This document shows positions 1-17,976 of a stretch of DNA of 17,976 nucleotides, piece by piece. A program made the position numbers and the translations under genes. Origin of the DNA: Kofleriaceae bacterium. Its GTDB lineage: Bacteria; Myxococcota_A; Polyangia; Haliangiales; Haliangiaceae. Positions within the stretch are counted from its first letter, which is position 1. Each line of letters opens with the position of its first letter. The stretch covers positions 64,001 to 81,976 of the forward strand of contig JANRKM010000120.1 in assembly GCA_033763475.1 (NCBI GenBank), read 5' to 3'. Under the pieces are notes generated by a model, which made no database searches, had not been told where the DNA came from, and saw only the letters and a program-made list of their open reading frames with translations.

Positions 1-133
1 GCGCCACGTTCCACCCCGTGAGGTGACCATCGCCGCGCGTCCTCGCGTGCTCTCCCCTGCGCCACGCCGTCGAGGCACAGACCTCGTCGCGATCGGCGAC
101 AACTATCTACTCGCTGCTGCCCAGGAGGCCACC

Positions 134-595: not shown

Positions 596-609
596 CGCTG
601 GGCGGTTTC

Positions 610-3855: not shown

Positions 3856-3867
3856 GCCAGGCGCGGG

Positions 3868-4787: not shown

Positions 4788-4795
4788 CCGCAATC

Positions 4796-4859
4796 TGCAC
4801 GCGCGAACGCAAAAACGCGGAGCGACCTTCGTCAAGGGACACCCCCCCAGGAGACACCC
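4796..4859 (+). promoter_or_regulatory. Conserved upstream/leader element B (core CTTCGTCAAGGGACACCCCCCCAGGAG at 4827-4853, with GGAG 6 nt before ATG 4860).
   Basis: Paralogous copy of element A at 3868-3941. Contains GAAC (4805-4808) and CGTC (4830-4833) at 21 nt spacing. This does not fit the canonical ECF spacing, so the promoter type is unassigned. Confidence 0.4.
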
Positions 4860-5615
4860 ATGCATCCCCGCGCTTTCGCCACGACGCCGAGCACGCCCCT
4901 ACCCCTCGAGGCCCCGATGCGCAGCCACCTTCTCGTCATCCTCTCGTGCATCGCCATCGCCGCCTGCGGCGCCGACGATCGCCGCGACGCGACCGCCCTC
5001 CCGCACCCCACCCCCACACCGCAGGGAGGCGCATCGCGATCGCGCCCCGCGCCTCCCCCGCCTGCGCTGCCCGCGCCCTCGCCCGCGCTGCCCGCGGCGA
5101 GCAGCGCCGAGCCGGATCGCGGTGGTTGTGCCGGCGAGGTCAACTATCCGTGCCCGGACGGCTTCGAGGACGGGTGCATCCGCCAGCGCACGACCGAACA
5201 CGTGTGTGTCGCCAAAGATGCCGAGGCGACCATTCCCTGCGATCGGCCGGCAACGCTGGGTTGCAAGAGCGGCATGCTCGACGCGTGCGCAGCGGCGCCG
5301 CCGTACGGCAAGCTCCACATCTGTGTCATCCCGGTGCCCAACCGCGCCGCCACCGCCACGCCGGCCAGCTCCGGCCTGTGGGCGCTACGCATCGAGTGCA
5401 GGAACGAGATCAAATACAGCTGCCCCTCGGGCCTCGAGAACGGCTGCATCGGGGCACGCACGACGTCCCACGTCTGCGTCGAATCAGGCGCCAAGGCGAC
5501 CGTGCCATGCGACCAGCCAGCCACGCTCGCCTGCAAGGACGGCATGGTCGACGCATGCACGACGTCGCCTCCGTTCGGGACGTTCCACGTGTGCGTGAAG
5601 CCGCGGGACGCCTGA
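4860..5615 (+). CDS. Secreted lipoprotein with two tandem 8-Cys modules (251 aa; alternative start ATG 4917, MRSHLLVILSCIAIAAC).
   Basis: Hydrophobic signal plus lipobox IAAC. A Pro/Ala-rich linker follows (PAPPPPALPAPSPALPAASS). Then come two homologous ~67 aa modules (VNYPCPDGFEDGCIRQRTTEHVCVAKDAEATIPCDRPATLGCKSGMLDACAAAPPYGKLHICV and IKYSCPSGLENGCIGARTTSHVCVESGAKATVPCDQPATLACKDGMVDACTTSPPFGTFHVCV). Confidence 0.6.
   Translation: MHPRAFATTPSTPLPLEAPMRSHLLVILSCIAIAACGADDRRDATALPHPTPTPQGGASRSRPAPPPPALPAPSPALPAASSAEPDRGGCAGEVNYPCPDGFEDGCIRQRTTEHVCVAKDAEATIPCDRPATLGCKSGMLDACAAAPPYGKLHICVIPVPNRAATATPASSGLWALRIECRNEIKYSCPSGLENGCIGARTTSHVCVESGAKATVPCDQPATLACKDGMVDACTTSPPFGTFHVCVKPRDA
5139..5609 (+). 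repeat. Intragenic tandem duplication (repeat 1 ~5139-5342, repeat 2 ~5407-5609) encoding the two 8-Cys modules.
   Basis: The nucleotide and protein similarity of the two blocks is visible by eye. Cys positions are fully conserved between copies. Confidence 0.7.
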
Positions 5616-5648
5616 GCCAGGTGCGCGTGCTTCGAGCAGCGCGCGTGC

Positions 5649-8600
5649 TCAGCGCCCCGGACCGACGAGGAGGTCGGCCATGCGTCCCGGGTGAGCGACG
5701 CCGAGCGCGAGGAGCTCCGCTCGCCGTGCGTCGACGGCTGCGCGATCCGCACGTAGCTCGGCGGCCCGGAGCCCCGAGGCGGCCGCGTAGGTGAGCATGC
5801 CCTGCGTGGACCACCCTCGGGCGGCGCGCTCGAACGCGGAGGCAGCGCGATCCCGGTCGTCACTCATGAGCGCGATCTGTGCCTGAAGCGACGCGACGCC
5901 CGGCGTGAGGACGTCGCCGTCGGCGAGCACCGCGATCCCCTCCTCGAGGACCGATCGCGCGAGGGCGACGTCGGCGGTGCCGGCGCGCCACGCCGACGCG
6001 GCTGCATGCGCGCGCAGCAAGGCGAAGGTTCCGCGCGTGAGCGGTACGAGGGACGCGAAGATCCGGTCGAAGGCCGGCCGCGCCTCACCTTCGATCCACG
6101 CGCAGCTCGCGGCGGGGGTCTCGTAGACGCGGATCGCCGTCTCCTGCAGCATCTTCATCGAGGCGAACAGATCGTGCTCCCCTCGCTCCCCGGTGGACGC
6201 CTCCTGGAGCCGGGCCCGAGCGCGGTCCGGCTGATCGGCGGCGAGGAGCACCCACACGCTCGTCGACTGGAGCCAGCGTTGCGCGTTGAGGTCCTGGCGC
6301 GCCGCCGCCTCCGAGATCCAACCGTCGAGGACCGCGAGGGCACGCGCGGGATTCGCCCCGCAATATGCGTACGCGGCCAGGAGCGGGACGCGCCCCATCG
6401 CACCGTCGAGCACCAGCGGTGGCGTGGCGTTCCAGCAGAGCCGCTGCGCCGCCTCGAGCGTCGCCGTCGCGTCCCCCACGGAGCCCGCGAACAGCTCGAC
6501 GACACCGCGCAACAAGGTGTGGCGAGCACGCTCCTGCGTGCCGCCGACGCGGGCGACGAGGGCTTCGGACGCGTCGAGCGCGGCGCGGAAGAACGGGTGC
6601 CGTGGATCTCGCTGCGCGTTCGACATGACGTAGAAGAACAGCGCGCGGAGGACGCGCAGCGGGTGCCCGGCCTCCAAGGCGAGCTCGAGGGCGCGGGCGC
6701 TGACGAAGGCCGAGCGGACGTCGTTCTGGTTCAAGGCCTGCGCGGTCGCGAGGAGCAGGTCGATCTGCCGGAGCAGGCGCGGCGCGATCGCGTCCGCGTC
6801 GCGCGGCTCGAAGGCGAAGCCGCGCACGACGAGGCGCGCGCCGATGTTGATCGAGCCGGCGACGGCGACGTAGGGGTCGGCGGGAAGCGCGAGGCCGACG
6901 GCGGCGAGGGCCTCCCCGATCAGCGCCATCCCCTCGGTGAGGCGGCCGCTGATCAACAGGTGCTCGCCGGCCGTCGCGCGGAGCTGGGAGGCCCAGCCCA
7001 CCCAACCACCGTCGCTGGCGAGCGTCGCCGCGGCGAGGCAGATCCTCCCTGACTCGGCGCGGTGCCCCGCCAGCGCCATTGCGTCCGCCCACTCGAGGTG
7101 CAGCGCGAGCGCATCCTCCCCGGCGCTGAGCTCCGCCGCGGCCGCGTAGGTGCGCGCGGCGCGCTCGAAGGCAAGCGCGCGGGCTGCCTCGCGCGCGGCG
7201 CGGTGCATCCACGTGCGCGCCGGGCCTTGTCTCCCTGCCTCGCGGTAGTGCGTCGCGAGCACGTGCGCCGGTGGGTTGCGCCGGCCCTCGAGGAACTCCG
7301 CGAGCTCCGCGTGCGCCGCGCGATAGCGCTCGGCCGACAGCGACGCCTCGACCGTCTCGCGGACGCGATCGTGATAGACGTCCATCAACGACTCCGCGTG
7401 GGTGCCCGTGCGAATCAGGCCTTGCTCGCGCAGCTCATCGACCACCTCGGGGCGCCACCCGTCGAAGCCTGCCGCCAGGCACCCCATGCTCTGAGGGAGC
7501 GGCATCGCCGAGAGCGCCACGATCTCGAGCAGGCGCCGCGCGTCGGCCGACACCTGGTCCAGGCTGCGCCGCAGGTTGTCGCCCAGATCTCCCGCCTGCC
7601 AGCCGGTGGCCCCGAGCATGCGCGCCAGCACGTAGGGGTGCCCGGCGGAGGCGGCCCACGCGGCGTCGGCGGAGATTCCGCGCTGCGCGCTGCGCTCCAC
7701 GAGGGACGCGACCGCCGCGCGGTCGAGCGGTGGGACCGCAAGCGTGCCGACGTCGATGGCATCGAACGTCGCAGCGCGGGACAGGAAGGCCTCGAGCGCG
7801 CCCGAGGTTTCGGTCGCGCGCACGCGGAGCGTCGCCAGGAACATCACGGAAGGTGCGCGCACGAGCACCTCGGCGAGCAGCGAGAACGTGTCCTCGCCGG
7901 CCCATTGCAGATCATCGAGGAAGATGATCACCGGCGCATCCGCGGCGACGCCGGCGAGTAACGCCGCGAGCGCATCCGTCGCGTGGCGCCGGATCTCGTG
8001 CGGGCTGTGCGCGCGCACCGGTGGCTCGGTCCCTCGGAGAACGGCGTCGAGCCGACGCAGGACGGGGAACATGAGGCTCAGCGCTTCGGCGTGCGCGGGC
8101 ACGACCGCGCGCACGTACGCCTCGTCGGCGTGCACGAGGTAGTTGCACAGGCTGTCTACGGCCGCGTCGAGCCCCTTGAAGGGGACGGCCTCGGCTTCGT
8201 GGCAACGTCCGTCGAACACGTGCGCACCTCGTGCGGCCGCGCGGCGGCAGAGCTCGCGCGCCATCATCGACTTCCCGATGCCAGGTGGACCCTCGACGAG
8301 GCACAGCTGGGTGCGGAGACGCGAGCGCGCCAGCGATGCCTCGAGCCACGCGAGCTCCGCGTCGCGGCCGATCAGCTCGACGTCGGGGCGGAGCTCTCCT
8401 CGCGGGGGTGCGCCGCGAAATGCCGCGAGGATCTCGTGCGCGGGTGGCCGGTGGTCCGGATCCGCCGCGAGCATCCGCATGGCCATCGCCGCGAGGTGCG
8501 CGGCCGGGCCGGAGGGAGCGTCGATCGGCGGCACGGGTGCGTGGACCTTCGCGCGCGCCATCGCGACCGGGTTGGTCATCCACGGTGGGCGCCCGGCGAT

Positions 8601-9230
8601 CGTTTCGTACAGCATGACGCCAACCGAGTACCAGTCGCTCGCGGTGACCGGCGCACCAAGGCCCTGCTCGGGTGCCATGTACAGCGGTGTGCCGCCGGAG
8701 ACCGTCGGACCTCGGCCGAGCGGCTCCCAGGCGAGGCCGAAGTCGAGGAGGACGACGCGCCCGCAGTCCTCGACCAGGACGTTGTTCGGCTTGACGTCGC
8801 GGTGCAACGTCGCGGCGCGGTGGAGCGCCTCGATCGCGGCGCCGAGCTGCGCAAAGGCCGACAGCGTGTGCTCGGGGACGCGCCGGAGGTACTCGTCGAA
8901 CGCGCGTCCTTCGACGAGCTCCATGCTGAAGTACCAGCGATCACCCTCGCTGAACAGCTCGTACAACTTCACGAGGTTCGGGTGGCGCACGCCGGCAACC
9001 GCGCGAAACTCGTTCTTGAACCTGTAGATCGAGTCCGGATCGTCGTGGCGCAACGCCTTCAGGGCCACCGTCGTGCCATAGCGACGATCGCGCGCCTCGT
9101 AGATGTCGCCGAAGGTCCCGCGTCCGAGGCGCCGCACGATCTCGTAGCGATCGAGGCGCGGCATCGACGGCGCGCGCAGCCGGGGACCTGCCGCCAGTTG
9201 TCCGATGAGCTCGTCGAGGTCCCGCGCCAA
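5649..9230 (-). CDS. Ser/Thr protein kinase fused to a P-loop NTPase (AAA/STAND-like) domain and a C-terminal TPR/helical domain (1193 aa).
   Basis: The N-terminal kinase motifs are YEIVRRLGRGTFGDIYEA, VALK, HRDVKPNNVLV, DFGLA, GTPLYMAPEQ. They are followed by LIGRDAELAWL...LVEGPPGIGKS (Walker A) and a Walker-B-like hydrophobic-DD (VIIFLDDLQWA). Then come ~600 aa of Ala/Leu-rich helical repeats. A possible alternative start is the internal MPRLDRYEIV. Confidence 0.85.
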   Translation of the reverse strand: MARDLDELIGQLAAGPRLRAPSMPRLDRYEIVRRLGRGTFGDIYEARDRRYGTTVALKALRHDDPDSIYRFKNEFRAVAGVRHPNLVKLYELFSEGDRWYFSMELVEGRAFDEYLRRVPEHTLSAFAQLGAAIEALHRAATLHRDVKPNNVLVEDCGRVVLLDFGLAWEPLGRGPTVSGGTPLYMAPEQGLGAPVTASDWYSVGVMLYETIAGRPPWMTNPVAMARAKVHAPVPPIDAPSGPAAHLAAMAMRMLAADPDHRPPAHEILAAFRGAPPRGELRPDVELIGRDAELAWLEASLARSRLRTQLCLVEGPPGIGKSMMARELCRRAAARGAHVFDGRCHEAEAVPFKGLDAAVDSLCNYLVHADEAYVRAVVPAHAEALSLMFPVLRRLDAVLRGTEPPVRAHSPHEIRRHATDALAALLAGVAADAPVIIFLDDLQWAGEDTFSLLAEVLVRAPSVMFLATLRVRATETSGALEAFLSRAATFDAIDVGTLAVPPLDRAAVASLVERSAQRGISADAAWAASAGHPYVLARMLGATGWQAGDLGDNLRRSLDQVSADARRLLEIVALSAMPLPQSMGCLAAGFDGWRPEVVDELREQGLIRTGTHAESLMDVYHDRVRETVEASLSAERYRAAHAELAEFLEGRRNPPAHVLATHYREAGRQGPARTWMHRAAREAARALAFERAARTYAAAAELSAGEDALALHLEWADAMALAGHRAESGRICLAAATLASDGGWVGWASQLRATAGEHLLISGRLTEGMALIGEALAAVGLALPADPYVAVAGSINIGARLVVRGFAFEPRDADAIAPRLLRQIDLLLATAQALNQNDVRSAFVSARALELALEAGHPLRVLRALFFYVMSNAQRDPRHPFFRAALDASEALVARVGGTQERARHTLLRGVVELFAGSVGDATATLEAAQRLCWNATPPLVLDGAMGRVPLLAAYAYCGANPARALAVLDGWISEAAARQDLNAQRWLQSTSVWVLLAADQPDRARARLQEASTGERGEHDLFASMKMLQETAIRVYETPAASCAWIEGEARPAFDRIFASLVPLTRGTFALLRAHAAASAWRAGTADVALARSVLEEGIAVLADGDVLTPGVASLQAQIALMSDDRDRAASAFERAARGWSTQGMLTYAAASGLRAAELRADRAAVDARRAELLALGVAHPGRMADLLVGPGR

Positions 9231-9355
9231 CGATCCGATCCTGCCAGAGGTTGCGAACCAACGCTTGCACTCCTGATCGCGAACCGGTACGAGAAAGGCC
9301 CCGCTGGCGAGCCGTGGCTGCGTTCGCGCGAGGCGTCTACCCCATGAGGTGAGTC

Positions 9356-10393
9356 GTGATCGACATCGATGGTAGCCGCGGTGAAGGCGGCGGACAGATC
9401 CTGCGCACGTCGCTCGCGCTCTCCATGCTCACGGGCAAGGCGTTCGCCATGCGCAACATCCGCGCGGGCCGCGCCAAGCCCGGCTTGCGCCGGCAGCACG
9501 TCGCGTGCGTCGAGGCCGCGGCGCAGCTGTGTGGCGCGACCGTGCACGGCGCGAGCGTGAGCAGCAAGTACCTCGAGTTCACGCCCGGACCGATCAGCGC
9601 CCGCGAGCTCGCGATCGACATCGGCAGTGCCGGCGCTGCGTCGCTCGTCGTGCAGACGATCCTCGTGCCGGCGCTGGTCGCCGGGCATCCGCTCCGCGCC
9701 ACGATCAAGGGCGGCACGCACAATCCGATGGCGCCGCCGTTCGAGTTCCTCGACCGCGTGTTTCTCCCGCACCTCCGCGCGATGGGCGCGGCGGTCACGC
9801 TCACGCTCGATCGCTACGGCTTCGCGCCCGGCGATGCGCGCGCGACCGAGCACGGCCAGCTCACCCTCACCGTCGACACCAGCGTGCTCCGTCCCATCGA
9901 GCTCGTCGAGGTCGGCGAGGTGCGCGCGCGCCGCGTCACGGTGCTGTCGTCCCGCCTGCCCACGCACGTCGCCGAGCGCGAGCTGAAGGTGGTGCGCGAA
10001 CGCCTACCCGGTCAGCTCGAGGTCGACGTGCGGGACGTGCGTGCGCCGGCGATCGGGAACGTGCTCATGATCGAGCTCGAGCGCGCGGGAGGCGTCGAGC
10101 TGATCACGAGCTTCGGCGCGAAGGGCAAGCGCGCCGAGCTGGTCGCCGAGGAGGCCTGCACCAACGCCTGCGCGTTCCTCGACGCCAACGTGCCCGTCGG
10201 CGAGCACCTGGCGGACCAACTCCTGCTGCCGATGGCGATCGCGGGCGGCGGCCGCTACCGCTGCGCGCCGCTGTCGCTGCACGCGACGACCAACATCGTG
10301 ACCATCCAGCAGTTCCTGGATCTCCCGATCGAGGTCGCGACGCACCGCGACGCCGTGCTGGTGTCGGTGGGTTCCGCTACCCTCTCCGCATGA
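9356..10393 (+). CDS. rtcA: RNA 3'-terminal phosphate cyclase RtcA (GTG start).
   Basis: Strong similarity to the RtcA family is read directly: IDGSRGEGGGQILRTSLALSMLTGKAFAMRNIRAGRAKPGLRRQH, IGSAGAASLVVQTILVPAL, and the active-site region HLADQLLLPMAIAGGG. The length of 345 aa is typical. Confidence 0.9.
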   Translation: MIDIDGSRGEGGGQILRTSLALSMLTGKAFAMRNIRAGRAKPGLRRQHVACVEAAAQLCGATVHGASVSSKYLEFTPGPISARELAIDIGSAGAASLVVQTILVPALVAGHPLRATIKGGTHNPMAPPFEFLDRVFLPHLRAMGAAVTLTLDRYGFAPGDARATEHGQLTLTVDTSVLRPIELVEVGEVRARRVTVLSSRLPTHVAERELKVVRERLPGQLEVDVRDVRAPAIGNVLMIELERAGGVELITSFGAKGKRAELVAEEACTNACAFLDANVPVGEHLADQLLLPMAIAGGGRYRCAPLSLHATTNIVTIQQFLDLPIEVATHRDAVLVSVGSATLSA

Positions 10394-10752
10394 GTGTTCG
10401 TTCCCCGCTGATCGCGCTCGGCGCCCTCAATGGCGCCCTCGCCGTGGCTGCCGGCGCCTTCGGTGCCCATGGCCTGCGCGAGAAGCTCGAGCCCCGCGCG
10501 CTCGAGATCTTCGAGACCGCCGCGCGCTACCAGATGTATCACGCGCTCGCGATGATCCTGTGCGGCGTCATCACGACGCGCAGTGCGACCACGGCCGGCT
10601 GGGTCATCCAGGCGGGCATCGTGGTGTTCAGCGGCTCGCTGTACGCGCTCTCGCTGTCCGGGGTGAAGGCACTCGGCGCGATCACCCCGCTCGGCGGCCT
10701 CGCGTTCATCGTCGGCTGGGCGCTGCTCGCGTGGGGCGCGTGGCGCGGCTGA
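10390..10752 (+). CDS. DUF423 family small membrane protein (YgdD/TMEM256-like), 120 aa. The start overlaps the rtcA stop (ATGA).
   Basis: MSVRSPLIALGALNGALAVAAGAFGAHGL...YQMYHALAMILCG...IVVFSGSLY matches the conserved GAFGAHGL / YQxxHALA pattern of DUF423. It sits at the in-frame 3' end of track ORF 9505..10752, whose N-terminal part is an out-of-frame shadow of rtcA. Confidence 0.65.
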   Translation: MSVRSPLIALGALNGALAVAAGAFGAHGLREKLEPRALEIFETAARYQMYHALAMILCGVITTRSATTAGWVIQAGIVVFSGSLYALSLSGVKALGAITPLGGLAFIVGWALLAWGAWRG

Positions 10753-10754
10753 CG

Positions 10755-11405
10755 TTACTGCGAGCGCTCGAAGTGCACGATGTCGATCAGCACCGTCGCC
10801 GCGAACAAGAGCGCGCGTAGGTTGACGTCCTGCACCTTGTCGAAGCTGACCCAGAAGTTGTCGGCCTCGGTGAACATCTCCTTGAGCAGGCCGCTCCACT
10901 TCTTTTGCACGAGGCCCACCTCGGCCTCCGAGCCAGGCAGGCGGACCTGAAACGTCCACGGCTTGAAGAACGGCCCGAACAGCGTGGCCACCTCCTGCCC
11001 CTCCGGGCCCTCCACGATGTACTTGCGGCGGAACCAGGTCCACTTGCGCTGGATCGCGCCGATCAGGTTGCCCTGCGAGTCGCGCACCTCGAGACGGTGG
11101 AAGATGAAGCGGAACGGCCGCCGCAGCACGAGCATCGGGCGGTTCTGCGTGAGGTCCTCGACGTGCGAGGTGAACGGCCGGTACGCCTGGAGGAACACCC
11201 GCTTGATGAACGCGGAGAAGCCCGACCCCTGCTCCTCGACGTTGAACACCGGATTACCGAGCTCGTCGTAGACGACGTAGATGTTGCGGGCGTCGAACGA
11301 GGTCAGGATCTCGAGCCACTTCTTGCGCTGGCGAACCGAGAGCTTCTGCGGGCGCCCAAAAACAGCGACGTCTGCCGACGGTGACTTGACCAGCGAGCTG
11401 TCCAT
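10755..11405 (-). CDS. Phospholipid scramblase family protein (Scramblase/PF03803-like). The start is probably ATG 11405; the track ORF extends to 11453.
   Basis: The C-terminal TEADNFWVSFDKVQD matches the scramblase D-A-D-N-F-x-I-x-F Ca-binding signature. Overall beta-rich ~215 aa, with no signal peptide. Confidence 0.55.
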   Translation of the reverse strand: MDSSLVKSPSADVAVFGRPQKLSVRQRKKWLEILTSFDARNIYVVYDELGNPVFNVEEQGSGFSAFIKRVFLQAYRPFTSHVEDLTQNRPMLVLRRPFRFIFHRLEVRDSQGNLIGAIQRKWTWFRRKYIVEGPEGQEVATLFGPFFKPWTFQVRLPGSEAEVGLVQKKWSGLLKEMFTEADNFWVSFDKVQDVNLRALLFAATVLIDIVHFERSQ

Positions 11406-11429
11406 GCGGGCACAGCGTACACTCGTCGC

Positions 11430-12200
11430 GTGCTTGCCGTGCAGCGAACGCACAAGTTGCGCACCGACCGCGACTGGTTACCACCGAGCGTGTTGCGCAC
11501 GAGCCGCCTCCTTCGCACGGGCATGGTCGCGGGTGCGAGCGCGGCGGTCGTGGGCGCCGTCATCGCGGTGCCGGCGACGCTATTGCTCTGGAAGGGTCTC
11601 GTCCTCGGCGGGGCGGGCGCGGCGGTGGCCGGTGACCGCGCCGCGCGGACACTCCTCCGCCGCCAGGTCGCGCGCATGACGCGTGGCGAGATCGAGCTCG
11701 CCTCGGTCTCCGCGCGTGCCGAGGGTGAGCTCGTCGTCGTCCGCGGCACGGTCCAGACCGAGGCGCCGCTGCGCGGCGTGCTCGTCGAGCGCGAGGGCAT
11801 CTACCGCCGCATGATCCTCAAAGCGCGCGGCACCTGGGTGCACGAGGCCGCCGTCGACTTCACCCTTCTCGACACGGCCGGCAACTACATCCTCGTGCAG
11901 GCCGCCGGCGCGCGCTGGATCGTGCCCCCGCGCGAGCTTGTCACCTATCCCGCGACGCGGTTCCGCGGCGATCACGTGCCCGGAGAGCTACGCCAGCTCA
12001 CCGAGGGCCACTCCGAGCTCCTCGCCTTCGAGCAGGTGCTGCCCGTCGGTGCCAACGTCCAGGTCATCGGCTACAAGACCGCGAGCGCGGACGTCACGGG
12101 CGACGTCGTCGACTATCGCCTGCCGCCACAGCGCGCGACCTTGCGCTCGGGCCCCGACCTCCCGCTGGTGATCACCGCCATCGAAGACCTCGAGCGTTAG
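11430..12200 (+). CDS. Hypothetical protein with an N-terminal transmembrane segment (GTG 11430 or ATG 11523 start).
   Basis: Long ORF with coding-like GC3 bias. The hydrophobic segment is GASAAVVGAVIAVPATLLLWKGLVLGGAGAAV. No recognisable domain. Confidence 0.45.
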   Translation: MLAVQRTHKLRTDRDWLPPSVLRTSRLLRTGMVAGASAAVVGAVIAVPATLLLWKGLVLGGAGAAVAGDRAARTLLRRQVARMTRGEIELASVSARAEGELVVVRGTVQTEAPLRGVLVEREGIYRRMILKARGTWVHEAAVDFTLLDTAGNYILVQAAGARWIVPPRELVTYPATRFRGDHVPGELRQLTEGHSELLAFEQVLPVGANVQVIGYKTASADVTGDVVDYRLPPQRATLRSGPDLPLVITAIEDLER

Positions 12201-12204
12201 GAGG

Positions 12205-12421
12205 AGAGGGACGGTTTCAACTTGCACAACTTGCGGGCACCTATCTGCCCGACTTTGTTGGAAGGCGCGGGGACGGTTTCAACTTGCGGGACGCTTCGAA
12301 CGGTTCTGTGGGACGACGCAGTTCGTGTCTCACCTCGACGAAGTTGAAACCGTCCCGCGTGATTCGAACGATCCCGCGGAGATGCACGGTCGAAAGTTGG
12401 GCAAGTTGAAACCGTCCCTCT
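12205..12421. repeat. MITE-like repeat element with four copies of an 18 bp motif GGGACGGTTTCAACTTGC: direct copies at 12208-12225 and 12270-12287, inverted copies at 12340-12356 and 12401-12418. Terminal inverted repeats are AGAGGGACGGTTTCAACTTGC (12205-12225 vs reverse complement of 12401-12421).
   Basis: Copies and orientations were read directly. Spacers of 45, 52 and 44 bp are unrelated to each other. The element fills the gap between the stop codons of two convergent genes (TAG 12198-12200 and TAG on the minus strand at 12420-12422). Possible TAGG flanking duplication at 12198-12201 and 12421-12424. Confidence 0.5.
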
Positions 12422-13220
12422 AGGCCTGCACCGACACGCTGAACTTGAGGCCCGCGGCCTCCATCGAGTCCTTGATGCGCTCCATTGTCTCCGTCGTGAC
12501 GGCGCTGAAGTTGTCGACGCTGGTCCACGGTCGCACGTAGAGCTTCACGGACTCGGCGGTGATCTCGGCGACGTCGATCGTCGTCGGAGGATCGTGCTGC
12601 ACGCGCTTATCCTCGGCGACTACGTCCTCGAGGAGCTTGCGCACCCGCTTCAAGTCCGTCGCCTGGTTCACGCTGACCACCAGGTCCACCCGTCGCCGTC
12701 CCAGCACGGTCAGGTTCTCGATCGGCTGCGCGATGATCTGTCCGTTGGGGATCGTGATCTCGCGGAAGTCGCCGGTGATCAGGACGGTGTGGAACACCTT
12801 GATGCCCTCGACGCGCCCCAGGTACTTGCCGATCGCGACCAGGTCTCCGACCTTGTAGGGCCGCAGCACGATCAGCATCACGCCGGCCGCGAAGTTCGAC
12901 AGCGAGCCCTGCAATGCCAGGCCGATCGCGAGGCCCGCCGCGCCGATCACCGCGACGACGGCCGTGGTCTCGACGCCCAGCGAGTCGAGGGCCGCGATCA
13001 CCACCGCGACGATCGACACCGCGTACACGAGGTCGCTCAAGAACTTGCGCAGCGAGATGTCGAGTCGGCTGCGCTCCATGAGCCGCACGAAGCCCTTGGT
13101 GACCATGCGCGCGAACCAGCGTCCGATCAGGAACACCGTCAGCGCGACCAACAAGCGCACGGCAAACGGAACGAGGTGCACCTCCGCGAGGTGCTGTACG
13201 TCAGCCCAGGTCACATCCAT
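12420..13220 (-). CDS. Small-conductance mechanosensitive channel, MscS family (266 aa).
   Basis: N-terminal TM helices, then the MscS signature region LALQGSLSNFAAGVMLIVLRPYKVGDLV...G.VEGIKVFHTVLITGDFREITIPNGQI and a C-terminal alpha/beta domain. Confidence 0.8.
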   Translation of the reverse strand: MDVTWADVQHLAEVHLVPFAVRLLVALTVFLIGRWFARMVTKGFVRLMERSRLDISLRKFLSDLVYAVSIVAVVIAALDSLGVETTAVVAVIGAAGLAIGLALQGSLSNFAAGVMLIVLRPYKVGDLVAIGKYLGRVEGIKVFHTVLITGDFREITIPNGQIIAQPIENLTVLGRRRVDLVVSVNQATDLKRVRKLLEDVVAEDKRVQHDPPTTIDVAEITAESVKLYVRPWTSVDNFSAVTTETMERIKDSMEAAGLKFSVSVQA

Positions 13221-13338
13221 GCCGTGACCATGCCCCGATCCGTCGAGGAATTCACGCCGGCCGCGCAGCGGTCTCAGCGCGAAGCGATGGGCGCGGCCGT
13301 AGGCCGTGCGGCGGGAATGCGCGCCGGAGGCGGACCAA

Positions 13339-14247
13339 TCAGCCCGTCGGGGATTTCTGCCACGGCGGCGGATTCATCGACTTGCTCAGATGGTCGATGA
13401 ACAGGGCCAGGCGCGGCGGCAGGTTCTGCCGCGCCGCATACACCGCGTTGACGTCACCCGCCCGCAGCGACCACTCCGGAAGGATGCGGACCAGCTTCCC
13501 CATGCGGATGTCACACGCGACCATGAACTCGGTGACCATGCCGATCCCGCCTCCGGCATTGATCACGTCGACCACGGCCGACAGGTTGTTGCTCGCGAAC
13601 CGGCACGGGCGGCCGACCTCGTAGGTCTGCTCGCCGTTGACGAGCGTCCAGCTCTGGACGCGCGCGCTCGGGGTGAACAGCACCTTGTCGTGATCGTCGA
13701 GCTCCTCGACCGACGTCGGCGCTGGCCGCTTCGCCAGGTACGCCGGCGACGCGACGAGCACGCCTGCAACGGGCGCCAGCTTGCGCGCGATCAGCGTCGA
13801 CTCGGGCAACGGCCCGAACCGCACCGCCACGTCGAACCCTTCTTCGATCAGATCCACGATCCGGTCCGAGGCATCGAGCTCGACGTTGACGTCGGGATGC
13901 GCGGCCACGAACTCGGCGATGATGCCGCCGAGGTACTTCGTCGACAGGTCGATCGGCGCGGTGATCCTGAGCCGCCCGCGCGGCGTCGCCTGCATGTCGG
14001 TCACGACCTGCTCGGCCGCCGCGATATCCGAAACGATGCGCGCGGCGCGCTCGTAGTACGCCTCGCCGATGTCCGTCAGCGCCAGCTTGCGCGTCGTGCG
14101 CTGCACCAGTCGAACCCCGAGCCGCTCCTCCAGCTGAGCGAGCTTGCGGCTGACCGTGGACTTCGGAAGCCCGAGCTGCTCGGCGGCGCCGGTGAAGCTC
14201 TTGGTCTCGACAACCTTGGTAAAGACAACGATGTCATTGAGGTCCAT
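13339..14247 (-). CDS. LysR-family transcriptional regulator (302 aa).
   Basis: N-terminal wHTH MDLNDIVVFTKVVETKSFTGAAEQLGLPKSTVSRKLAQLEERLGVRLVQRTTRKLALT, followed by a LysR substrate-binding domain. Divergent to the downstream gene. Confidence 0.85.
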   Translation of the reverse strand: MDLNDIVVFTKVVETKSFTGAAEQLGLPKSTVSRKLAQLEERLGVRLVQRTTRKLALTDIGEAYYERAARIVSDIAAAEQVVTDMQATPRGRLRITAPIDLSTKYLGGIIAEFVAAHPDVNVELDASDRIVDLIEEGFDVAVRFGPLPESTLIARKLAPVAGVLVASPAYLAKRPAPTSVEELDDHDKVLFTPSARVQSWTLVNGEQTYEVGRPCRFASNNLSAVVDVINAGGGIGMVTEFMVACDIRMGKLVRILPEWSLRAGDVNAVYAARQNLPPRLALFIDHLSKSMNPPPWQKSPTG

Positions 14248-14262
14248 GGGCGGCTCGCAGTC

Positions 14263-14275
14263 TACACGTGTGCTA
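14263..14275. promoter_or_regulatory. Candidate LysR box T-N11-A (TACACGTGTGCTA) containing the perfect 8 bp palindrome ACACGTGT, in the 44 bp divergent intergenic region.
   Basis: Seen directly between the LysR start (14247, minus strand) and the ATG at 14292. It fits the generic LysR-type T-N11-A operator architecture. Confidence 0.35.
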
Positions 14276-14291
14276 ACGGTGATGGCCTAGC

Positions 14292-14786
14292 ATGTCAGGT
14301 AGGCTCGGCGAGCTAACGGCCAAGGTCGATGCGTTTTTTGCGCGCGTCGAGACGCGCCATGGCGACGACATGCAGTGCGCCACCGGGTGCTCCGACTGCT
14401 GTCACGTGCGCCTCACCATCACGTCCGTCGAGGCCGCCGCGGTCCGCACCGCCCTCGCCAGCTGGCCCCCCGAGCGCCGCGCCGCGCTCGCCGCGAACGT
14501 CGTCGGAGCGCCGGCCGACCATTGCGCCGCGCTCGCCCCGAACGGCCGCTGCCTGATCTACGACGTGCGCCCCGTCGTGTGCCGCTCGCACGGCGCGCCG
14601 ATCCGCATGCGCCAAGGCGGCCTGCCGGTGATCCAATCGTGCCACCGCAACTTCACACGCGTCACGCCCGACGCCGACTGCGTGCTCGATCAGGAGACGC
14701 TCTCGGCGCTCACGCTCGCTGTCGATCGCGCGTCCGGCGGCGATGGCAGCCGCGTCGACCTCGCAAGCCTGCTCACAAACGAGTGA
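14292..14786 (+). CDS. YkgJ/UPF0153-type CxxCxxCC cysteine-cluster protein (putative Fe-S/Zn-binding), 164 aa.
   Basis: The CATGCSDCC motif (C-x2-C-x2-CC) lies near the N-terminus and further Cys lie downstream (CLIYDVRPVVCRSHG). This is typical of the PF03692 family. It is divergent from the LysR gene. Confidence 0.6.
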   Translation: MSGRLGELTAKVDAFFARVETRHGDDMQCATGCSDCCHVRLTITSVEAAAVRTALASWPPERRAALAANVVGAPADHCAALAPNGRCLIYDVRPVVCRSHGAPIRMRQGGLPVIQSCHRNFTRVTPDADCVLDQETLSALTLAVDRASGGDGSRVDLASLLTNE

Positions 14787-14844
14787 TTTCGCGGCGTCAG
14801 CCGGTGCGCGCAACCGCATTCGTTAGCCGCCGAGAACCCGGGGC

Positions 14845-16647
14845 ATGCCTGGAGACTCTCAACGCGAACATGCACCGGTAGCCAGCGGCCCCACAGCGAA
14901 ACCCGAGGTCGCCCCCACGAAAGCGAAGCAGCCCACACCGACTCCGAGCCACGTCGACAAGCTCGCTGGCGCGGCGCCGATGCCCTCGCCGCGCTTCGCG
15001 TACGCACCAAAGATCGATCTCGGTGATGTGGTGGTCGGTGATCGCTCGACGCACGAGACGTCCGTCTACGCACTCGACGCCACGGGCCAGGGTCCGCGGG
15101 TCGACGCGACCGTCTCGGGCGATCCCGCGTTCTCGTTGTCGCGGGCGCCCCTCTTCCTGCCTGCAATCGGCGGAACCTTCGATCCGAGCTACGGGTTCAA
15201 GCTGGACTTTCGTCCCACGCGCGCCGGCACGTTCGAAGGGACGCTGACGGTTCATGTTCTCGACGCAACCAACGAGACATTCCACATTCCGCTGCGCGCT
15301 GGGGCCCACGCGCCCGGCGGCAGGACCCGCACCGAGCAGGCCGTCGCGCGTACCACGTCCGAGGCCAAGAACGTCCAGGAGTTGCTCCGGCACGCGCATG
15401 ACGCGGAGACGGACGCCACGATTGCCGCCGAGTGGACGCAGATGGAGCCGTATCCGTCCGGTGCCAAGGCCAAGCTCGATTCGTTGCGAATCGATGCCCT
15501 CGCCGCTCTCGGAACACTCGACATCAAACAGCAAGGAGGCATCGCCGTCGCATCCGAAGAGATCGGCAAGTTCCAGCGGAAGCCTCCGGCGGGGAATGAC
15601 TCGTTGCTCGAGCAGCTCGCATTTGCCGCGCTCGATCTCGCGACGGCGAGCATCGCCGGCGCTGTCGCAGGCAGGCTGAAGGGACTCGTCAAAATCGCGG
15701 CCACCCCCAACGTCTCTGCGCAGGTCCCACATCCGATGCTGCCACAACGACGAGCAAAGCCCGAAGGGAAGCCCATCGAAGCCGATGAAGGCATCATCGG
15801 GCTCTTCACCGACGGGATGAAGCACCTCGTGAAGGCGAGCGGCACACACGCCAAGCACGCGTTGAAGGGCTCACCGAGCACGGCCAGTGCAGCATGGAGC
15901 AGCGAGGTCGACACGAGCGCAGAGCTCGGGACGTACGCGAAGTTCTCGGCCGACCCAACGGCGCAGTTCATCGCCATCCAGACGGATGGACTCGCGGATC
16001 TATCGCATGGCCGCAAGACCCGCTCCGCGGTTCGCGCCTACGATGCCTTGCTGCCGATGCTGCGCACCCGCCCGGAGCATGCGATCGCGAGCATGCAGGC
16101 CATCGTTACCGCCTTGAGCGAGGCCGCCAGCGACGTCACACAGACACAGGCAGAGCAGTCGGTCCGCCACTGGGTCCGCTACCTCCAGGCGAGCTCACCA
16201 GGAACTGCGAATCGTCCGTTCAGCCAGGAGGCGCCGATGGACAAGATCGACGGCATGATCGACGTCCGGTTGAGCGCCGATGCACGCCCAGCCGAGCCCG
16301 TCCAGGCCGTGGGCGCACGCCTCTTCGGGGTGAGGAAGGCTGTCGTCGAGAGGTTAGCGAAACACTCCATGCGCGATCTGGGACTGACAGTCCGTGCGCA
16401 CAGCAATCTTCGATCGCCTTCGGCGTCGATCACGGTAGTTCGCGCGCCAGACGGAACCATCGAGTTCTCGGAGAACCCGACACCGGAGAGCCACACGCAG
16501 GGTTGGTTCGCGCGCCGTGCGGAAGCCTTCGGAGCTGGACGGGATGCGCCGCGTGGAGCGCGTATGTTGATTGAGGAGATCTTGCCAAAATCGCTTGGGG
16601 AGGTTGCGCATGGTGCGTCGAACATCGAGAACGACAGTGTCGACTGA
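14845..16647 (+). CDS. Hypothetical protein, 600 aa. Pro/Thr/Lys-rich disordered N-terminus, a probable beta-sandwich region (~aa 50-150) and a large alpha-rich remainder. An alternative start is ATG 14980 (MPSPRF...).
   Basis: Uninterrupted ORF whose GC is lower than the rest of the window. No signal peptide. No motif I can assign. Confidence 0.5.
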   Translation: MPGDSQREHAPVASGPTAKPEVAPTKAKQPTPTPSHVDKLAGAAPMPSPRFAYAPKIDLGDVVVGDRSTHETSVYALDATGQGPRVDATVSGDPAFSLSRAPLFLPAIGGTFDPSYGFKLDFRPTRAGTFEGTLTVHVLDATNETFHIPLRAGAHAPGGRTRTEQAVARTTSEAKNVQELLRHAHDAETDATIAAEWTQMEPYPSGAKAKLDSLRIDALAALGTLDIKQQGGIAVASEEIGKFQRKPPAGNDSLLEQLAFAALDLATASIAGAVAGRLKGLVKIAATPNVSAQVPHPMLPQRRAKPEGKPIEADEGIIGLFTDGMKHLVKASGTHAKHALKGSPSTASAAWSSEVDTSAELGTYAKFSADPTAQFIAIQTDGLADLSHGRKTRSAVRAYDALLPMLRTRPEHAIASMQAIVTALSEAASDVTQTQAEQSVRHWVRYLQASSPGTANRPFSQEAPMDKIDGMIDVRLSADARPAEPVQAVGARLFGVRKAVVERLAKHSMRDLGLTVRAHSNLRSPSASITVVRAPDGTIEFSENPTPESHTQGWFARRAEAFGAGRDAPRGARMLIEEILPKSLGEVAHGASNIENDSVD

Positions 16648-17293
16648 ACGGCTGCCGCTTGTTGTCGTTGCAGCGGTCGCCGCCTGTGGAGGGACTTCTT
16701 CGATCGAGATCGTTCCCGGTCAGATCGAGACGGTCACCATGCGGGCATCCAATCGCAAAGATGGACTGGCGCACCAAGTGTCGGTGGTGGTGCCGAAACA
16801 CTACAAGCACGAGCGCGACGAGCTTTCCAGCCAGCGCTGGGGAGCGCCGCGCGTCCCATCGCTGACCATCGACTATGGCTACACCAACCGTGACGAAGCA
16901 ATCCGCGCGCAGTTCGAGCATGCGCGAAAGCCGTGTCGAGAGCTGAGTGGATTGCCGCAGGTCGAGATGCGGCGCGAGGTGTTGCCCGATGGGTTCCAGG
17001 TGATGTGCGGCTTTGAGAACGAGACAACCGCTCGGCCGAACGAGGTGTTGCGGTTCATTCGCGTCGATGACGCGCTCTTGCTCTGCAACATGATGGGGAT
17101 GGACCGGCTCTCAGATTCTGAGGTGAAGGCTGTCTGGATGGCCTGCGCATCGGTCGTGGTTCAGATCCCACACATGATCGTCCCACCGCCGCGATTTGGT
17201 CCACGCGAGCGGTGGAGCATGGAGCTCGTGAAATTCGACGATGGATGGACGGGGTGGAAGACCCTTCGCCATCAGCTGCCTGAGACCGACTGA
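16610..17293 (+). CDS. Hypothetical lipoprotein (MVRRTSRTTVSTERLPLVVVAAVAACGG...), ~227 aa. It overlaps the 3' end of the upstream ORF by 38 nt.
   Basis: Strong SD GGGGAGG at 16597-16603, 6 nt before ATG 16610. Signal peptide plus lipobox VAAC. The track ORF 16571 begins at a TTG further upstream. Low GC (~58-60%). Confidence 0.5.
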   Translation: MVRRTSRTTVSTERLPLVVVAAVAACGGTSSIEIVPGQIETVTMRASNRKDGLAHQVSVVVPKHYKHERDELSSQRWGAPRVPSLTIDYGYTNRDEAIRAQFEHARKPCRELSGLPQVEMRREVLPDGFQVMCGFENETTARPNEVLRFIRVDDALLLCNMMGMDRLSDSEVKAVWMACASVVVQIPHMIVPPPRFGPRERWSMELVKFDDGWTGWKTLRHQLPETD

Positions 17294-17350
17294 CGTTTCC
17301 AGCGCCTGGACGCGCGCAACCGCGCACGGCCTACGTCGATAGACGGGGCC

Positions 17351-17866
17351 ATGCAAGGGATCGGCTATGGTGACGCCAGTCAGGTTCTGTCGGATCGCAT
17401 TCGCTGGGCGCGCGCCCTGCTCGCGCAGCTGATCGATCGCGGGCGCGAGGAGGGCTGGGTGCCCGGGACCCGGACTCCACTCGCAGCCGATCCACGTGCG
17501 ATCGAGGACGAGATCGCCACGCGCCTCGAGTCTACGTTGTCCACGCCGATCATCGTGCCGATGGAGTGGCTCGCGTTGCGGCTCGAGCTATCCGGGCCCG
17601 AGCTAGCCGCGCTGTGGCTGTTGTCCTGCGTCGAGGTCTCGCCGGCGCTCTCGCGGCTCGCGCACGCGCTGGGCACGGCCGACGGGCCCGAGCTCAGCCT
17701 TCAGATCGTGCGGCAGTTGATCCCACTGAATGATCTGTCGCTCGACTCGCTCGAGCGCCGAGGGCTGATCGAGCTGACCGACGATCATGATCGAGGGCAT
17801 CACCGGCGCACCCTGCGGGCCTCGGACCGCGTCGTCGCGGTCGAAATCAAGGTTGTTGTCGCATGA
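17351..17866 (+). CDS. Hypothetical protein, 171 aa.
   Basis: Clean ORF with a moderate coding signature. Acidic/Leu-rich helical sequence (PMEWLALRLELSGPELAALWLLSCVEVSPALSRLAHAL). No assignable domain. Confidence 0.4.
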   Translation: MQGIGYGDASQVLSDRIRWARALLAQLIDRGREEGWVPGTRTPLAADPRAIEDEIATRLESTLSTPIIVPMEWLALRLELSGPELAALWLLSCVEVSPALSRLAHALGTADGPELSLQIVRQLIPLNDLSLDSLERRGLIELTDDHDRGHHRRTLRASDRVVAVEIKVVVA

Positions 17867-17976
17867 AAGTTGTCGACGTCAGTTCGTGTGTGCCTCCGGG
17901 TTGAGGGTGACGGTGTCGGGGCGTTCCCACGAGCGAGTAGGACCGGCCCATCGTTCTGGATGGCGTTCGCGCGCCT

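Follow-up and report, generated by a model that had tools for sequence, protein, structure and literature searches.

A previously undescribed three-gene cassette of Kofleriaceae myxobacteria with a predicted Afp15/Pvc15-type AAA+ ATPase gene

Genes and features of the cassette

The window, the whole 17,976-nt stretch of DNA analysed here, carries at positions 14845-17866 a block of three open reading frames, all on the plus strand. It represents one copy of a three-gene cassette that is found in Kofleriaceae myxobacteria and had not been described before. The original prediction placed the frames at 14845-16647, 16610-17293 and 17351-17866, and these placements were borne out. The 38-nt overlap of the first two genes and the GGGGAGG site that it described are likewise present in the sequence, as is a lipobox. 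The features are as follows.

14845-16647, plus strand: 600 aa protein of an undescribed family ("p600"); GC3 0.77
14845-14982, plus strand: disordered N-terminal leader of p600, aa 1-46 (AF2 pLDDT below 50 at residues 1-29 and 38-46)
14938-14964, plus strand: conserved leader motif PTPSHVDKL, aa 32-40
14992-15309, plus strand: ASH/PapD-like (MSP, "choice-of-anchor D") beta-sandwich, aa 50-155
15328-16194, plus strand: six long helices forming a bundle, aa 162-450; two loops, aa 287-314 and 342-370, are modelled with low confidence
15598-15702, plus strand: conserved hydrophobic Ala/Gly-rich helix within the bundle, aa 252-286, LAFAALDLATASIAGAVAG, with a central acidic residue
16258-16632, plus strand: C-terminal alpha/beta domain of p600, aa 472-596 (AF2 pLDDT 81-96)
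16597-16603, plus strand: Shine-Dalgarno-like GGGGAGG within the p600 coding sequence, 6 nt before the lipoprotein ATG (16610)
16610-17293, plus strand: 227 aa predicted exported lipoprotein, Cys-rich "family 1", with signal peptide and lipobox; GC3 0.73
16685-16687, plus strand: Cys26 of the lipobox AVAAC (...LVVVAAVAAC26GG, read by eye)
17351-17842, plus strand: first 164 codons of an Afp15/Pvc15-type AAA+ ATPase gene, encoding the winged-helix N domain; assigned from PF22977 and homology to the sister genome L001
17843-17976, no strand assigned: sequence past the truncation point, unrelated to the cassette (six-frame translation)

The p600 protein is 100% identical to SFX73_15070, an NCBI protein from a Kofleriaceae metagenome-assembled genome. 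A profile search, with clustering at 50% identity, retrieved 187 clusters at E<1e-3 and 66 at E<1e-30; the family, sampled from Kofleriaceae/Haliangiales metagenome-assembled genomes, is narrow and confined to one order. The AF2 model of p600 had a pLDDT of 82.8 and a pTM of 0.75. As predicted, the N-terminus is disordered, rich in Pro, Ala, Thr and Lys, and lacks a signal peptide, on the evidence of the sequence and of pLDDT values below 50 in parts of residues 1-46. The leader motif, P[ST]Pxx[VA]D[KRQ][LIM] or a near variant, lies at about residues 30-40 in the ATPase-linked members. It also occurs in large proteins that are non-homologous or shortened (401 aa in L026 and 693 aa in L021), and is missing in three members that have no adjacent ATPase gene.

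The ASH domain, whose sequence scores fall below curated cutoffs, is missing from the shorter or distant large proteins of L021 and L022 and from the 401 aa protein of L026. Its likeness to the ASH/PapD-like/MSP domains of HYDIN, CEP192 and the NCBIfam "choice-of-anchor D" entries concerns this one domain of p600 only. The hydrophobic helix holds the Kyte-Doolittle maximum of p600 (1.66), and most family members likewise have their most hydrophobic segment here; the consensus is LAxxALDxATAGIAG. The helix is 70% identical to its counterpart in L001, compared with 17-42% in the neighbouring segments, and is a candidate for membrane insertion or oligomerisation.

The family-invariant residues W443, G470, G495, R517, G537 and D597 cluster in the C-terminal region of p600, and the C-terminal domain is followed by a conserved acidic tail, [TN]D[SG][DE]x. 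The sequence profile of this domain gave no PDB match, and the fold matches listed were those of the ASH domain; the C-terminal domain is novel, with no detectable relatives among the matches listed. Members of the family contain 0-3 Cys per ~600 aa (none or one in 38 of the 43 members). This near absence of Cys, together with the conserved hydrophobic helix, does not support the earlier description of p600 as a large cytoplasmic protein. Searches of Pfam, NCBIfam, PADLOC, PHROG and PDB matched only the ASH domain and no toxin domain, and neither p600 nor the 43 family members had a Pfam match to DUF4157/eCIS_core.

The overlap of the first two genes, with its internal GGGGAGG, suggests that translation of the lipoprotein is coupled to that of p600; in homologous gene pairs, the two genes either share 11-23 nt or lie 15-17 nt apart. 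In an alignment of 10 family-1 homologues, C133, C159 and C179 were invariant, and a PC motif was present in most. A lipobox was found in nine of the 10, and also in the FGE-type and HEAT-type partners described below; the gene 2 product carries a lipobox or a signal anchor in every locus. The 227 aa protein had no relative in Pfam, NCBIfam, PADLOC, PHROG or PDB. As read from these motifs, the gene 2 product is predicted to be an exported, disulfide-type lipoprotein.

The third frame was previously regarded as an unknown 171 aa protein. It is in fact a truncated N-terminal fragment of an Afp15/Pvc15-type AAA+ ATPase: 164 ATPase codons are followed by eight unrelated codons to the stop at 17866. 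The fragment scored 27.2 bits (E 3.6e-6) for the PF22977 winged-helix domain, whose cutoff is 27, and shares 57% identity with residues 5-164 of the L001 ATPase (648 aa). Six-frame translation revealed no continuation of the ATPase after 17842 in any frame, and positions 17843-17976 matched neither the related loci nor other parts of the window. From the window end, a minus-strand frame reaches into this segment with its tail, the last residues before the stop being WERPDTVTLNPEAHTN. Unless the truncation is an assembly error, the cassette may be crippled in this genome, since its ATPase is cut to a 164-codon stump. The unit is uncharacterised, as the original prediction had it: its first two proteins have no relatives in the five databases beyond the ASH domain.

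Full-length cassette ATPases matched PF22977 weakly and also matched PF00004; the ATPase of a Nostoc cluster has the same architecture and matched PF22977 at 211 bits. In nine aligned cassette ATPases, D1 contains GxxGxGR[AT]T, and D2 contains GPPGTGKTM, SKYIGETEK, LFDEAD and FRRR; these hallmarks were read in the homologues, the window copy being without D1 and D2. Across 415 aa, a cassette ATPase shares 40% identity with the ATPase at the end of a complete Deinococcus contractile-injection cluster, and it is 42% identical (aa 381-641) to Afp15 of pADAP, whose gene sits between the tape-measure and DUF4255 genes. D2 is highly conserved and the N domain only 32-56% identical, as expected if the N domain tracks variable substrates. 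From these motifs, the full-length gene 3 product is classed as an Afp15/Pvc15-type unfoldase, in which the winged-helix N domain is followed by a degenerate D1 and then an active D2.

Composition and divergence of the locus

The GC content of the block is 64.9%, compared with 70.9% in the rest of the window, and no other 3022-nt window falls below 66.9%. The predicted drop is therefore real, whereas the predicted range of 58-62% is true of the lipoprotein gene only (60.8%, with 500-nt windows down to 0.608-0.622). Total GC discriminates poorly here, since the MscS and scramblase genes of the window also have 64-65% through a low GC2, with GC3 at 0.92-0.93. GC3 confirmed the predicted loss of third-position bias: with 0.81 in the third frame, the block spans 0.73-0.81 and is cleanly separated from nine neighbouring genes (0.86-0.93), the sole exception among the neighbours being an unknown frame at 3942-4787 (0.79).

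In the sister genome L001, the trio lies at the same chromosomal site. The dip in GC3 is confined there to the three homologous genes (0.78, 0.74 and 0.76, with 0.90 and 0.88 in the flanks) and recurs in the cassettes of L019 and L021-L023, but not in those of L002 (0.88) and L024 (0.89). Between the window and L001, the flanking genes are 86-98% identical, whereas the trio is only 35-58% identical, with synonymous sites near saturation. The dN and dS values are 0.015-0.086 and 0.32-0.54 in the flanks, and 0.35-0.74 and 0.94-1.2 in the cassette; third-position identity is 0.68-0.80 and 0.39-0.50, respectively. The window contains no tRNA, integrase or IS ends, and its flanking and direct repeats are at chance level. 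Of the characters of a genomic island, atypical composition is present; mobility signatures and presence/absence in the sister genome are absent.

These data bear on the possibility that the block is a recently acquired foreign island without coherent function, or a set of decaying junk frames. GC3 below that of the flanks, the truncated third gene and the break of synteny with L001 left of 9326 are consistent with such an origin. In contrast, the cassette occupies the same site in L001, the mobility signatures are lacking, and the three conserved families have intact frames, invariant residues and a confident fold. We consider this explanation very improbable, and the conservation data have already largely refuted it. 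The "foreign origin" of the original prediction is too simple, because the cassette is syntenic in L001 and its low GC3 recurs in several genomes but not in L002 or L024, and so is not simply the signature of a donor. Allele replacement or long-lived polymorphism at a fixed locus fits the pattern better than recent island insertion. The divergence of the alleles far beyond that of their neighbours suggests a role in conflict between organisms.

Recurrence of the trio and comparison with known systems

The order of large protein, exported lipoprotein and ATPase is kept in about 15 independent Kofleriaceae/Haliangiales loci with different neighbours in each (L001, L003, L004, L005-7, L008, L016/17, L019, L021-26 and L030/31), which bears out the prediction that the three frames form one functional unit. 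As far as sampled, the cassette appears limited to Kofleriaceae/Haliangiales (Myxococcota). L025 and L026 carry tandem effector-lipoprotein pairs: two different large proteins with a near-identical leader, each with its own lipoprotein, and one shared ATPase. Close p600 relatives are paired with non-homologous lipoproteins, either Cys-rich family 1, HEAT-like or FGE-sulfatase/lectin-like. The conflict-type behaviour proposed earlier is thus seen in the diverged alleles, the varying partners and the tandem pairs.

The trio could instead form an envelope-spanning housekeeping or remodelling complex, in which p600 is truly anchored in the membrane by the hydrophobic helix. Its N-terminal half would then be in the cytoplasm, where the ATPase extracts it or turns it over, and its C-terminal half would dock the co-translated lipoprotein in the periplasm. 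The helix is the best conserved of p600 (Kyte-Doolittle 1.66-1.98), the coupled lipoprotein would meet the C-terminal domain in the periplasm, the site is the same in two genomes, and classic-clade AAA+ ATPases, the nearest solved relatives being Cdc48/p97, extract membrane proteins. However, protein differences of 50-65% between genomes whose neighbouring genes differ by 2-14% would be unexpected for a housekeeping complex, as would the swapped partner folds and the different neighbourhood in each genome. Moreover, AF2 packs the helix into a compact bundle (pTM 0.75), the helix is a marginal anchor because it is Ala/Gly-rich with a central Asp, the family is narrow, and the ATPase is truncated here and so apparently dispensable. 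Such a complex is rather unlikely.

The cassette ATPases have the same three-part architecture as Afp15 of the Serratia Afp, Pvc15 of the Photorhabdus PVC and Alg15 of the Algoriphagus AlgoCIS. In Pvc15, the D1 Walker A Lys is replaced by Arg, D1 has no Walker B, and D2 has a "DEAD" box and a K-Y pore loop (PMC11495950). The cassette ATPases share all of these hallmarks and have arginine fingers in the active D2. Injection-system cargo carries disordered N-terminal loading sequences that are recognised by the AAA+ ATPase (bioRxiv 10.64898/2026.05.27.728243; PMC11495950), and p600 likewise has a disordered leader, with a conserved motif, as a candidate loading sequence. Like the cargo Pnf, Pdp1, Cgo1/2 and the DUF4157 proteins, p600 consists of a disordered leader and then folded domains. 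The cargo pairs of one system are reported to share similar leaders (bioRxiv 10.64898/2026.05.27.728243), and the paralogues within L025/26 do so as well.

The cassette differs from the injection systems in several respects. Structural proteins of the Deinococcus, pADAP and Nostoc clusters were compared by tblastn with the window and 31 related loci (378 kb). Only the ATPase and one DUF4157 gene in L010-12 were matched in these 32 loci. No sheath, tube, baseplate, spike, DUF4255 or tape-measure gene lies within 8-10 kb of any cassette, unlike in the Afp15, Pvc15 and Alg15 loci. The ATPase gene belongs instead to a constant three-gene unit, alongside genes for exported lipoproteins and for one or two proteins with a leader; the window copy retains only the N domain. 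Unlike Pnf, Pdp1 and Cgo1/2, p600 has an ASH sandwich and a hydrophobic-helix bundle in place of DUF4157 or a known toxin domain, and each effector-like gene is followed by a lipoprotein gene, unlike the cargo genes of injection systems. L010-15 have no adjacent ATPase; the distant p600 member of L010 sits among eCIS_core (DUF4157) and CarboxypepD_reg genes, a setting like the effector end of the Nostoc cluster.

The cassette can also be compared with polymorphic toxin-immunity modules, among them T6SS effectors that depolarise membranes and have periplasmic or lipoprotein immunity. These modules share with the cassette a conserved N-terminal region before a more variable body, a small, often overlapping gene immediately downstream for an envelope protein, tandem pairs, very high allelic divergence and a hydrophobic helix rich in small residues. 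In contrast to these modules, the C-terminal domain of p600 is conserved across the family and not swapped, lipoproteins of unrelated fold stand beside similar large proteins, and T6SS, Rhs, CDI or other trafficking domains are absent from the cassette.

The trio could also serve envelope-triggered defence or abortive infection: the lipoprotein would sense an invader or envelope damage, p600 would be a membrane-disrupting executioner held soluble in the cytoplasm, and the ATPase would activate or reset it. This is consistent with the exchange of non-homologous, binding-type lipoproteins (lectin-like FGE-sulfatase, HEAT or Cys-rich) among large proteins that are close relatives; FGE-sulfatase (FGS) domains have been proposed to be invader-binding modules in conflict systems of multicellular bacteria (PMC7159879). 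The extreme allelic divergence at a fixed locus, the lack of a delivery apparatus nearby and the similarity of the AAA core to PADLOC IetA models (100-116 bits) point the same way. However, the ATPase is by architecture and motifs specifically of the Afp15/Pvc15 cargo-loader type, the other two proteins had no PADLOC match, neither phage nor defence-island genes were seen next to the cassette, and a leader shared by two large proteins fits substrate targeting better than sensing. The IetAS system was rejected as an identity for the cassette: the ATPase reached only 90 bits against the NCBIfam IteA cutoff of 510, no cassette encodes a subtilisin-like IetS protease, and IetA, of ~370 aa, lacks the winged-helix domain and D1. 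We regard a defence function as unlikely.

Proposed function and significance

We tentatively favour, at rather less than an even chance, an effector, a lipoprotein partner or immunity protein and a loader ATPase, akin to cargo handling by contractile injection systems. The ATPase would recognise the leader of the gene 1 product through its variable N domain and then unfold or thread that protein, in parallel with the loading of leader-tagged cargo into contractile injection particles by Pvc15, Afp15 and Alg15. The substrate would then go to the membrane or into a delivery route whose genes lie elsewhere. Judged by hydropathy alone, the gene 1 product may be a membrane-active effector, and the lipoprotein would act on the envelope side as its cognate partner, in the simplest case as an immunity protein; we infer this toxin/immunity assignment. 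The locus is highly polymorphic among related genomes, as expected under conflict-driven selection.

The loader reading draws on the trio conserved amid differing neighbours, the family identity of the ATPase with every Pvc15 hallmark, and the motif-bearing disordered leader common to both large proteins of L025/L026. An exported partner with conserved cysteines in the gene 2 position, the near Cys-free p600 family, the extreme divergence of the cassette relative to its flanks, and the L010 member among eCIS_core genes also argue for it. Against it stand the lack of contractile-tail genes near the cassette in the 32 loci, the lack of a recognisable toxin domain or DUF4157 in p600, and L010-15, which have no adjacent ATPase, the link between motif and ATPase coming from few loci. 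Toxin-specific immunity does not usually place non-homologous lipoproteins beside close relatives, as is seen with p600; such partner swapping is more in keeping with a variable module for binding or sensing. We also considered, as quite unlikely, a self-contained, tail-less descendant of a contractile-injection cargo-loading module, in which the unfoldase would read the leader motif on Cys-free membrane-inserting proteins and drive their export or insertion without a particle, with hypervariable lipoproteins for self-protection or targeting.

To our knowledge, Afp15/Pvc15-type AAA+ ATPases have so far been known only as cargo loaders within contractile injection operons, and these ATPases and leader sequences are already being engineered for protein delivery. 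Our study places this ATPase type in a compact unit that includes exported lipoproteins and putative substrates tagged with a leader, apart from tail genes. Either modules of cargo, immunity and loader can disperse around the genome, which would help in finding new effectors, or the loader has taken on a role in another mechanism of delivery or membrane attack. The short candidate recognition motif in the leader is directly testable. The cassette defines two unannotated protein families and identifies a hypervariable locus in a family of myxobacteria that is uncultured and little studied. If the tail-less reading is true, it would represent a new protein-delivery or kin-discrimination system in social myxobacteria.

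A three-gene cassette and its truncated ATPase gene

The third ORF of the block (17351–17866, plus strand), previously regarded as an unknown protein, is instead a fragment of an AAA+ ATPase gene and contains the PF22977 winged-helix N domain. It is 57% identical to residues 5–164 of an AAA+ ATPase of 648 aa, whose gene occupies the same position in L001, a sister-genome contig. The similarity ends after codon 164 (nt 17842), followed by eight unrelated codons and a stop, and no other reading frame in the window carries the ATPase on past nt 17842. The sequence past the truncation point has no match in the related loci or elsewhere in the window. The truncation may be genuine, with about 1.45 kb of the ATPase gene lost by deletion or rearrangement, or it may stem from a join in the MAG assembly. 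Positions 17843–17976 hold unrelated sequence, and a minus-strand ORF that comes in from the edge of the window ends there (...WERPDTVTLNPEAHTN and a stop).

Relatives of the 600 aa large protein (p600) revealed a conserved cassette. A Kofleriaceae MAG (Myxococcota) encodes a hypothetical protein with the same sequence (100% identity). Word-indexed homology searches returned just three relatives for p600 and no relative for the lipoprotein, and a scan of genome contigs with the 3-sequence alignment gave no match; when 1.84 billion representatives were searched by profile, 187 clusters related to p600 emerged, 66 of them at E<1e-30. The named sources of p600 relatives are Kofleriaceae or “Deltaproteobacteria” MAGs. 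The gene order is constant, with the large protein followed by a small, often overlapping gene and a 640–655 aa PF22977+AAA ATPase, while the upstream neighbours vary (both in L001, L003, L004, L005–7, L008 and L016/17). A search with the ATPase N domain added 14 loci, all from Kofleriaceae/Haliangiales-type genomes or metagenomes, a narrow taxonomic range; in each one whose sequence extends far enough, genes for a large protein and an exported lipoprotein immediately precede the ATPase gene. In a second layout (L010–15), the gene after that of the p600-like protein encodes a lipoprotein of the FGE-sulfatase type, and the vicinity lacks an ATPase gene. In L025 and L026, a single ATPase comes after two unlike large proteins (about 400 and 620–660 aa) with almost identical leaders; each large protein is paired with a downstream lipoprotein of its own, and the two lipoproteins belong to different families. 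The 5′ ends of both large genes are near-identical in L025 (654–7157) and L026 (455–6772), in L025 together with the upstream sequence, suggesting duplication or gene conversion that preserved the leader. No description of the cassette or of PF22977 was found in the literature.

Composition and divergence of the locus

The gene map of the window, drawn from GC3 and Pfam, is as follows.

508–3855, plus: Ser/Thr kinase-TPR protein, 1115 aa
3942–4787 and 4860–5615, plus: two ORFs without assignment, between two kinase genes
5649–9230, minus: kinase-AAA_16 protein (STAND-like), 1193 aa
9356–10393, plus: RtcA
10755–11453, minus: scramblase (PF03803, E 3.8e-41)
11430–12200, plus: unknown ORF
12420–13220, minus: MscS
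13339–14247, minus: LysR
14292–14786, plus: CxxCxxCC protein
14845–17866, plus: three-ORF block (p600, lipoprotein, ATPase stump)

The two ORFs at 3942–4787 and 4860–5615 have no match in Pfam, NCBIfam or PADLOC. The scramblase is a full-length homologue of the eukaryote-type phospholipid scramblases, a family uncommon in bacteria; it is 94% identical in L001 and lies beside DUF423, MscS and RtcA genes. Promoter, terminator, tRNA and repeat scans of the window gave nothing above chance, and the inverted match of 10 nt that links 14210 and 17847 is no better than chance.

The three ORFs lie where the original prediction placed them. The 38-nt overlap was confirmed, and so were the GGGGAGG site, 6 nt ahead of the ATG at 16610, and Cys26 in its AVAAC lipobox. 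The NCBI lipoprotein entry of 229 aa implies a TTG start at 16604 abutting GGGGAGG; the ATG at 16610, with its normal spacing, is the likelier start. The lower GC content also held, at 64.9% in the block against 70.9% in the rest of the window, where every 3-kb window has at least 66.9%; the predicted 58–62% is reached by the lipoprotein gene only. Since total GC also dips in membrane-protein genes because of their low GC2, GC3 is the cleaner measure here. GC3 is not uniform, being 0.77, 0.73 and 0.81 in the block against 0.86–0.93 in nine neighbouring genes, with one exception: ORF 3942–4787, at 0.79, is level with the cassette and is the second atypical gene of the window by composition.

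The block had been read as being of foreign origin. Comparison with L001, a 536-kb metagenome contig collinear with window 9326–17842, places the trio at the same position in the sister genome, and the window holds no tRNA, integrase or repeat signatures of mobility; a simple foreign island or junk is therefore largely excluded. The low GC3 is shared by the L001 cassette (0.74–0.78, against 0.90 and 0.88 in its flanking genes) and also accompanies the cassette in L019 and L021–23, but not in L002 (0.88) or L024 (0.89).

The cassette alleles in the window and L001 are strongly divergent. Protein identity is 86–98% in the flanks and 47%, 35% and 58% in the cassette genes, and nucleotide identity is 87–91% in the flanks and 68–74% in the few alignable stretches of the cassette. 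The flanks have dN of 0.015–0.086 and dS of 0.32–0.54, against 0.35–0.74 and 0.94–1.22 in the cassette, where weaker codon bias may somewhat inflate dS; third-position identity falls from 0.68–0.80 to 0.39–0.50. The step in divergence lies in the spacer between the CxxCxxCC and p600 genes. This spacer measures 310 nt in L001 (9691–10000) and 58 nt in the window (14787–14844). Fast evolution in situ as the sole cause fails to explain the roughly three-fold higher synonymous divergence, which indicates that the alleles are much older than the surrounding chromosome. Thus, either recombination has replaced an allele or a polymorphism has been maintained for a long time, and fast protein evolution alone is not enough. 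Synteny stops just upstream of RtcA, and window 1–9325 and L001 1–4400 are unrelated, which makes this a plastic neighbourhood. In L001, Stig1-like and unknown genes lie ahead of an RtcB-RtcA pair, and in the window RtcA stands without RtcB.

The large protein and its exported partner

Neither p600 nor the window lipoprotein matched Pfam, NCBIfam, PADLOC, PHROGs or, by profile search, the PDB. AF2 modelled p600 confidently from a 43-sequence alignment (pLDDT 82.8, pTM 0.75; from 3 sequences, pLDDT was 44), with the following anatomy.

aa 1–46: disordered region
aa 50–155: ASH/PapD-like beta sandwich
aa 162–450: six long helices with two floppy loops
aa 472–596: alpha/beta domain

Family members share a conserved hydrophobic helix that is rich in Ala and Gly and has Asp or Glu at its centre (LAxxALDxATAGIAG; Kyte-Doolittle 1.66 in the window copy) and an acidic C-terminal tail, [TN]D[SG][DE]x. 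Cysteines number 0–3 per protein, with none or one in 38 of 43 members. A leader motif at residues ~30–40, P-[ST]-P-x-x-[VA]-D-[KRQ]-[LIM] (PTPSHVDKL in the window copy), or a close variant, was present in all 8 ATPase-linked members inspected and absent from the three members that lack an ATPase next to them. Large proteins that are otherwise dissimilar (L021 and L026-401) carry the motif too. The large proteins of L021, L022 and L026-401 lack the ASH domain and retain only the hydrophobic helix, a W-x-x-Y-[VL]-A-Q-S-x-x-G region and the C-terminal domain; those of L023 and L030 appear different again.

The small partner is exported in every locus examined. The partners in the window, L001–5, L008, L016 and L021–26 have a lipobox cysteine, and those of L010 and L019 have a signal anchor in its place. 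At least three unrelated types exist: the Cys-rich family 1, to which the window copy belongs and in which C133, C159 and C179 are invariant; FGE-sulfatase/C-type-lectin-like proteins; and HEAT-like proteins (L004 and L022). The L004 large protein is close to p600 (39% identity), yet its partner is HEAT-like. Myxobacterial SitA/SitI lipoprotein toxins were set aside, as we take the cassette lipoprotein to be a small partner without a toxin domain.

Possible relationship to contractile injection systems

The nearest solved relatives of the cassette ATPase are Cdc48/p97, and its specific family is that of the contractile-injection ATPases. Searching plasmids with the ATPase (tblastn) returned 142 records, 32 of them Serratia plasmids, and three matches were inspected. 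The Nostoc match is the terminal ATPase of a cluster adjoining phage-tail, CarboxypepD_reg and DUF4157 genes. The Deinococcus match is the terminal ATPase of a complete cluster (PAAR, DUF4157, tube, sheath, DUF4255, gp25, baseplate and VgrG), and both of these ATPases have PF22977 plus AAA. The match on the Serratia plasmid pADAP is Afp15, between tape-measure and DUF4255 genes. The cassette ATPase is 40% identical to the Deinococcus protein over 415 aa and 42% identical to Afp15 over 261 aa. The cassette ATPases show what has been reported for Pvc15 (PMC11495950): the N domain spans about 200 aa, D1 has Arg at the position of the Walker A Lys and lacks Walker B, and D2 carries GPPGTGKT and DEAD together with a K-Y pore loop and arginine fingers. 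Among cassettes, D2 is very conserved and the N domain is only 32–56% identical. In the Deinococcus cluster (Deinococcus aquaticus plasmid pDATS01; L033/L035, 192558–198331), genes for an FHA-domain protein and for a protein kinase of 1596 aa are inserted between the baseplate and spike genes.

Two other assignments were rejected. An ESCRT-III/PspA plus Vps4-like remodelling pair was not supported by fold, and the ATPase is Pvc15-type; for IetAS membership, the score was under the cutoff and the protease was absent.

When sheath, tube, DUF4255, gp25, baseplate, VgrG, PAAR and tape-measure proteins were used as tblastn queries, the window and 31 related loci (378 kb) matched only in the ATPases and one DUF4157 gene, with no tail genes. 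In L010/L011/L012 (3193–13806), a 649 aa protein distantly related to p600, together with its FGE-sulfatase partner, lies between two eCIS_core (DUF4157) genes and adjoins a 1066 aa protein with a CarboxypepD_reg-like N-terminus. The effector end of the Nostoc injection-system cluster (L032) is laid out similarly.

The variable, binding-type lipoproteins together with the absence of tail genes nearby keep two rival readings alive. The cassette could be a defence system that senses the envelope, which we consider improbable, or a complex that spans the envelope, which is unlikely as well.

Cargo loading in their own contractile injection systems requires Pvc15 and Alg15, and recognition occurs via disordered N-terminal sequences of the cargo (PMC11495950; bioRxiv 10.64898/2026.05.27.728243). 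By this likeness, the cassette ATPase would act on the leader of the large protein, which may itself act on membranes, and the lipoprotein would protect or target. Our tentative reading, plausible though short of probable, is that the cassette is a module of effector, lipoprotein partner and loader that may derive from, or may still serve, contractile-injection cargo handling.
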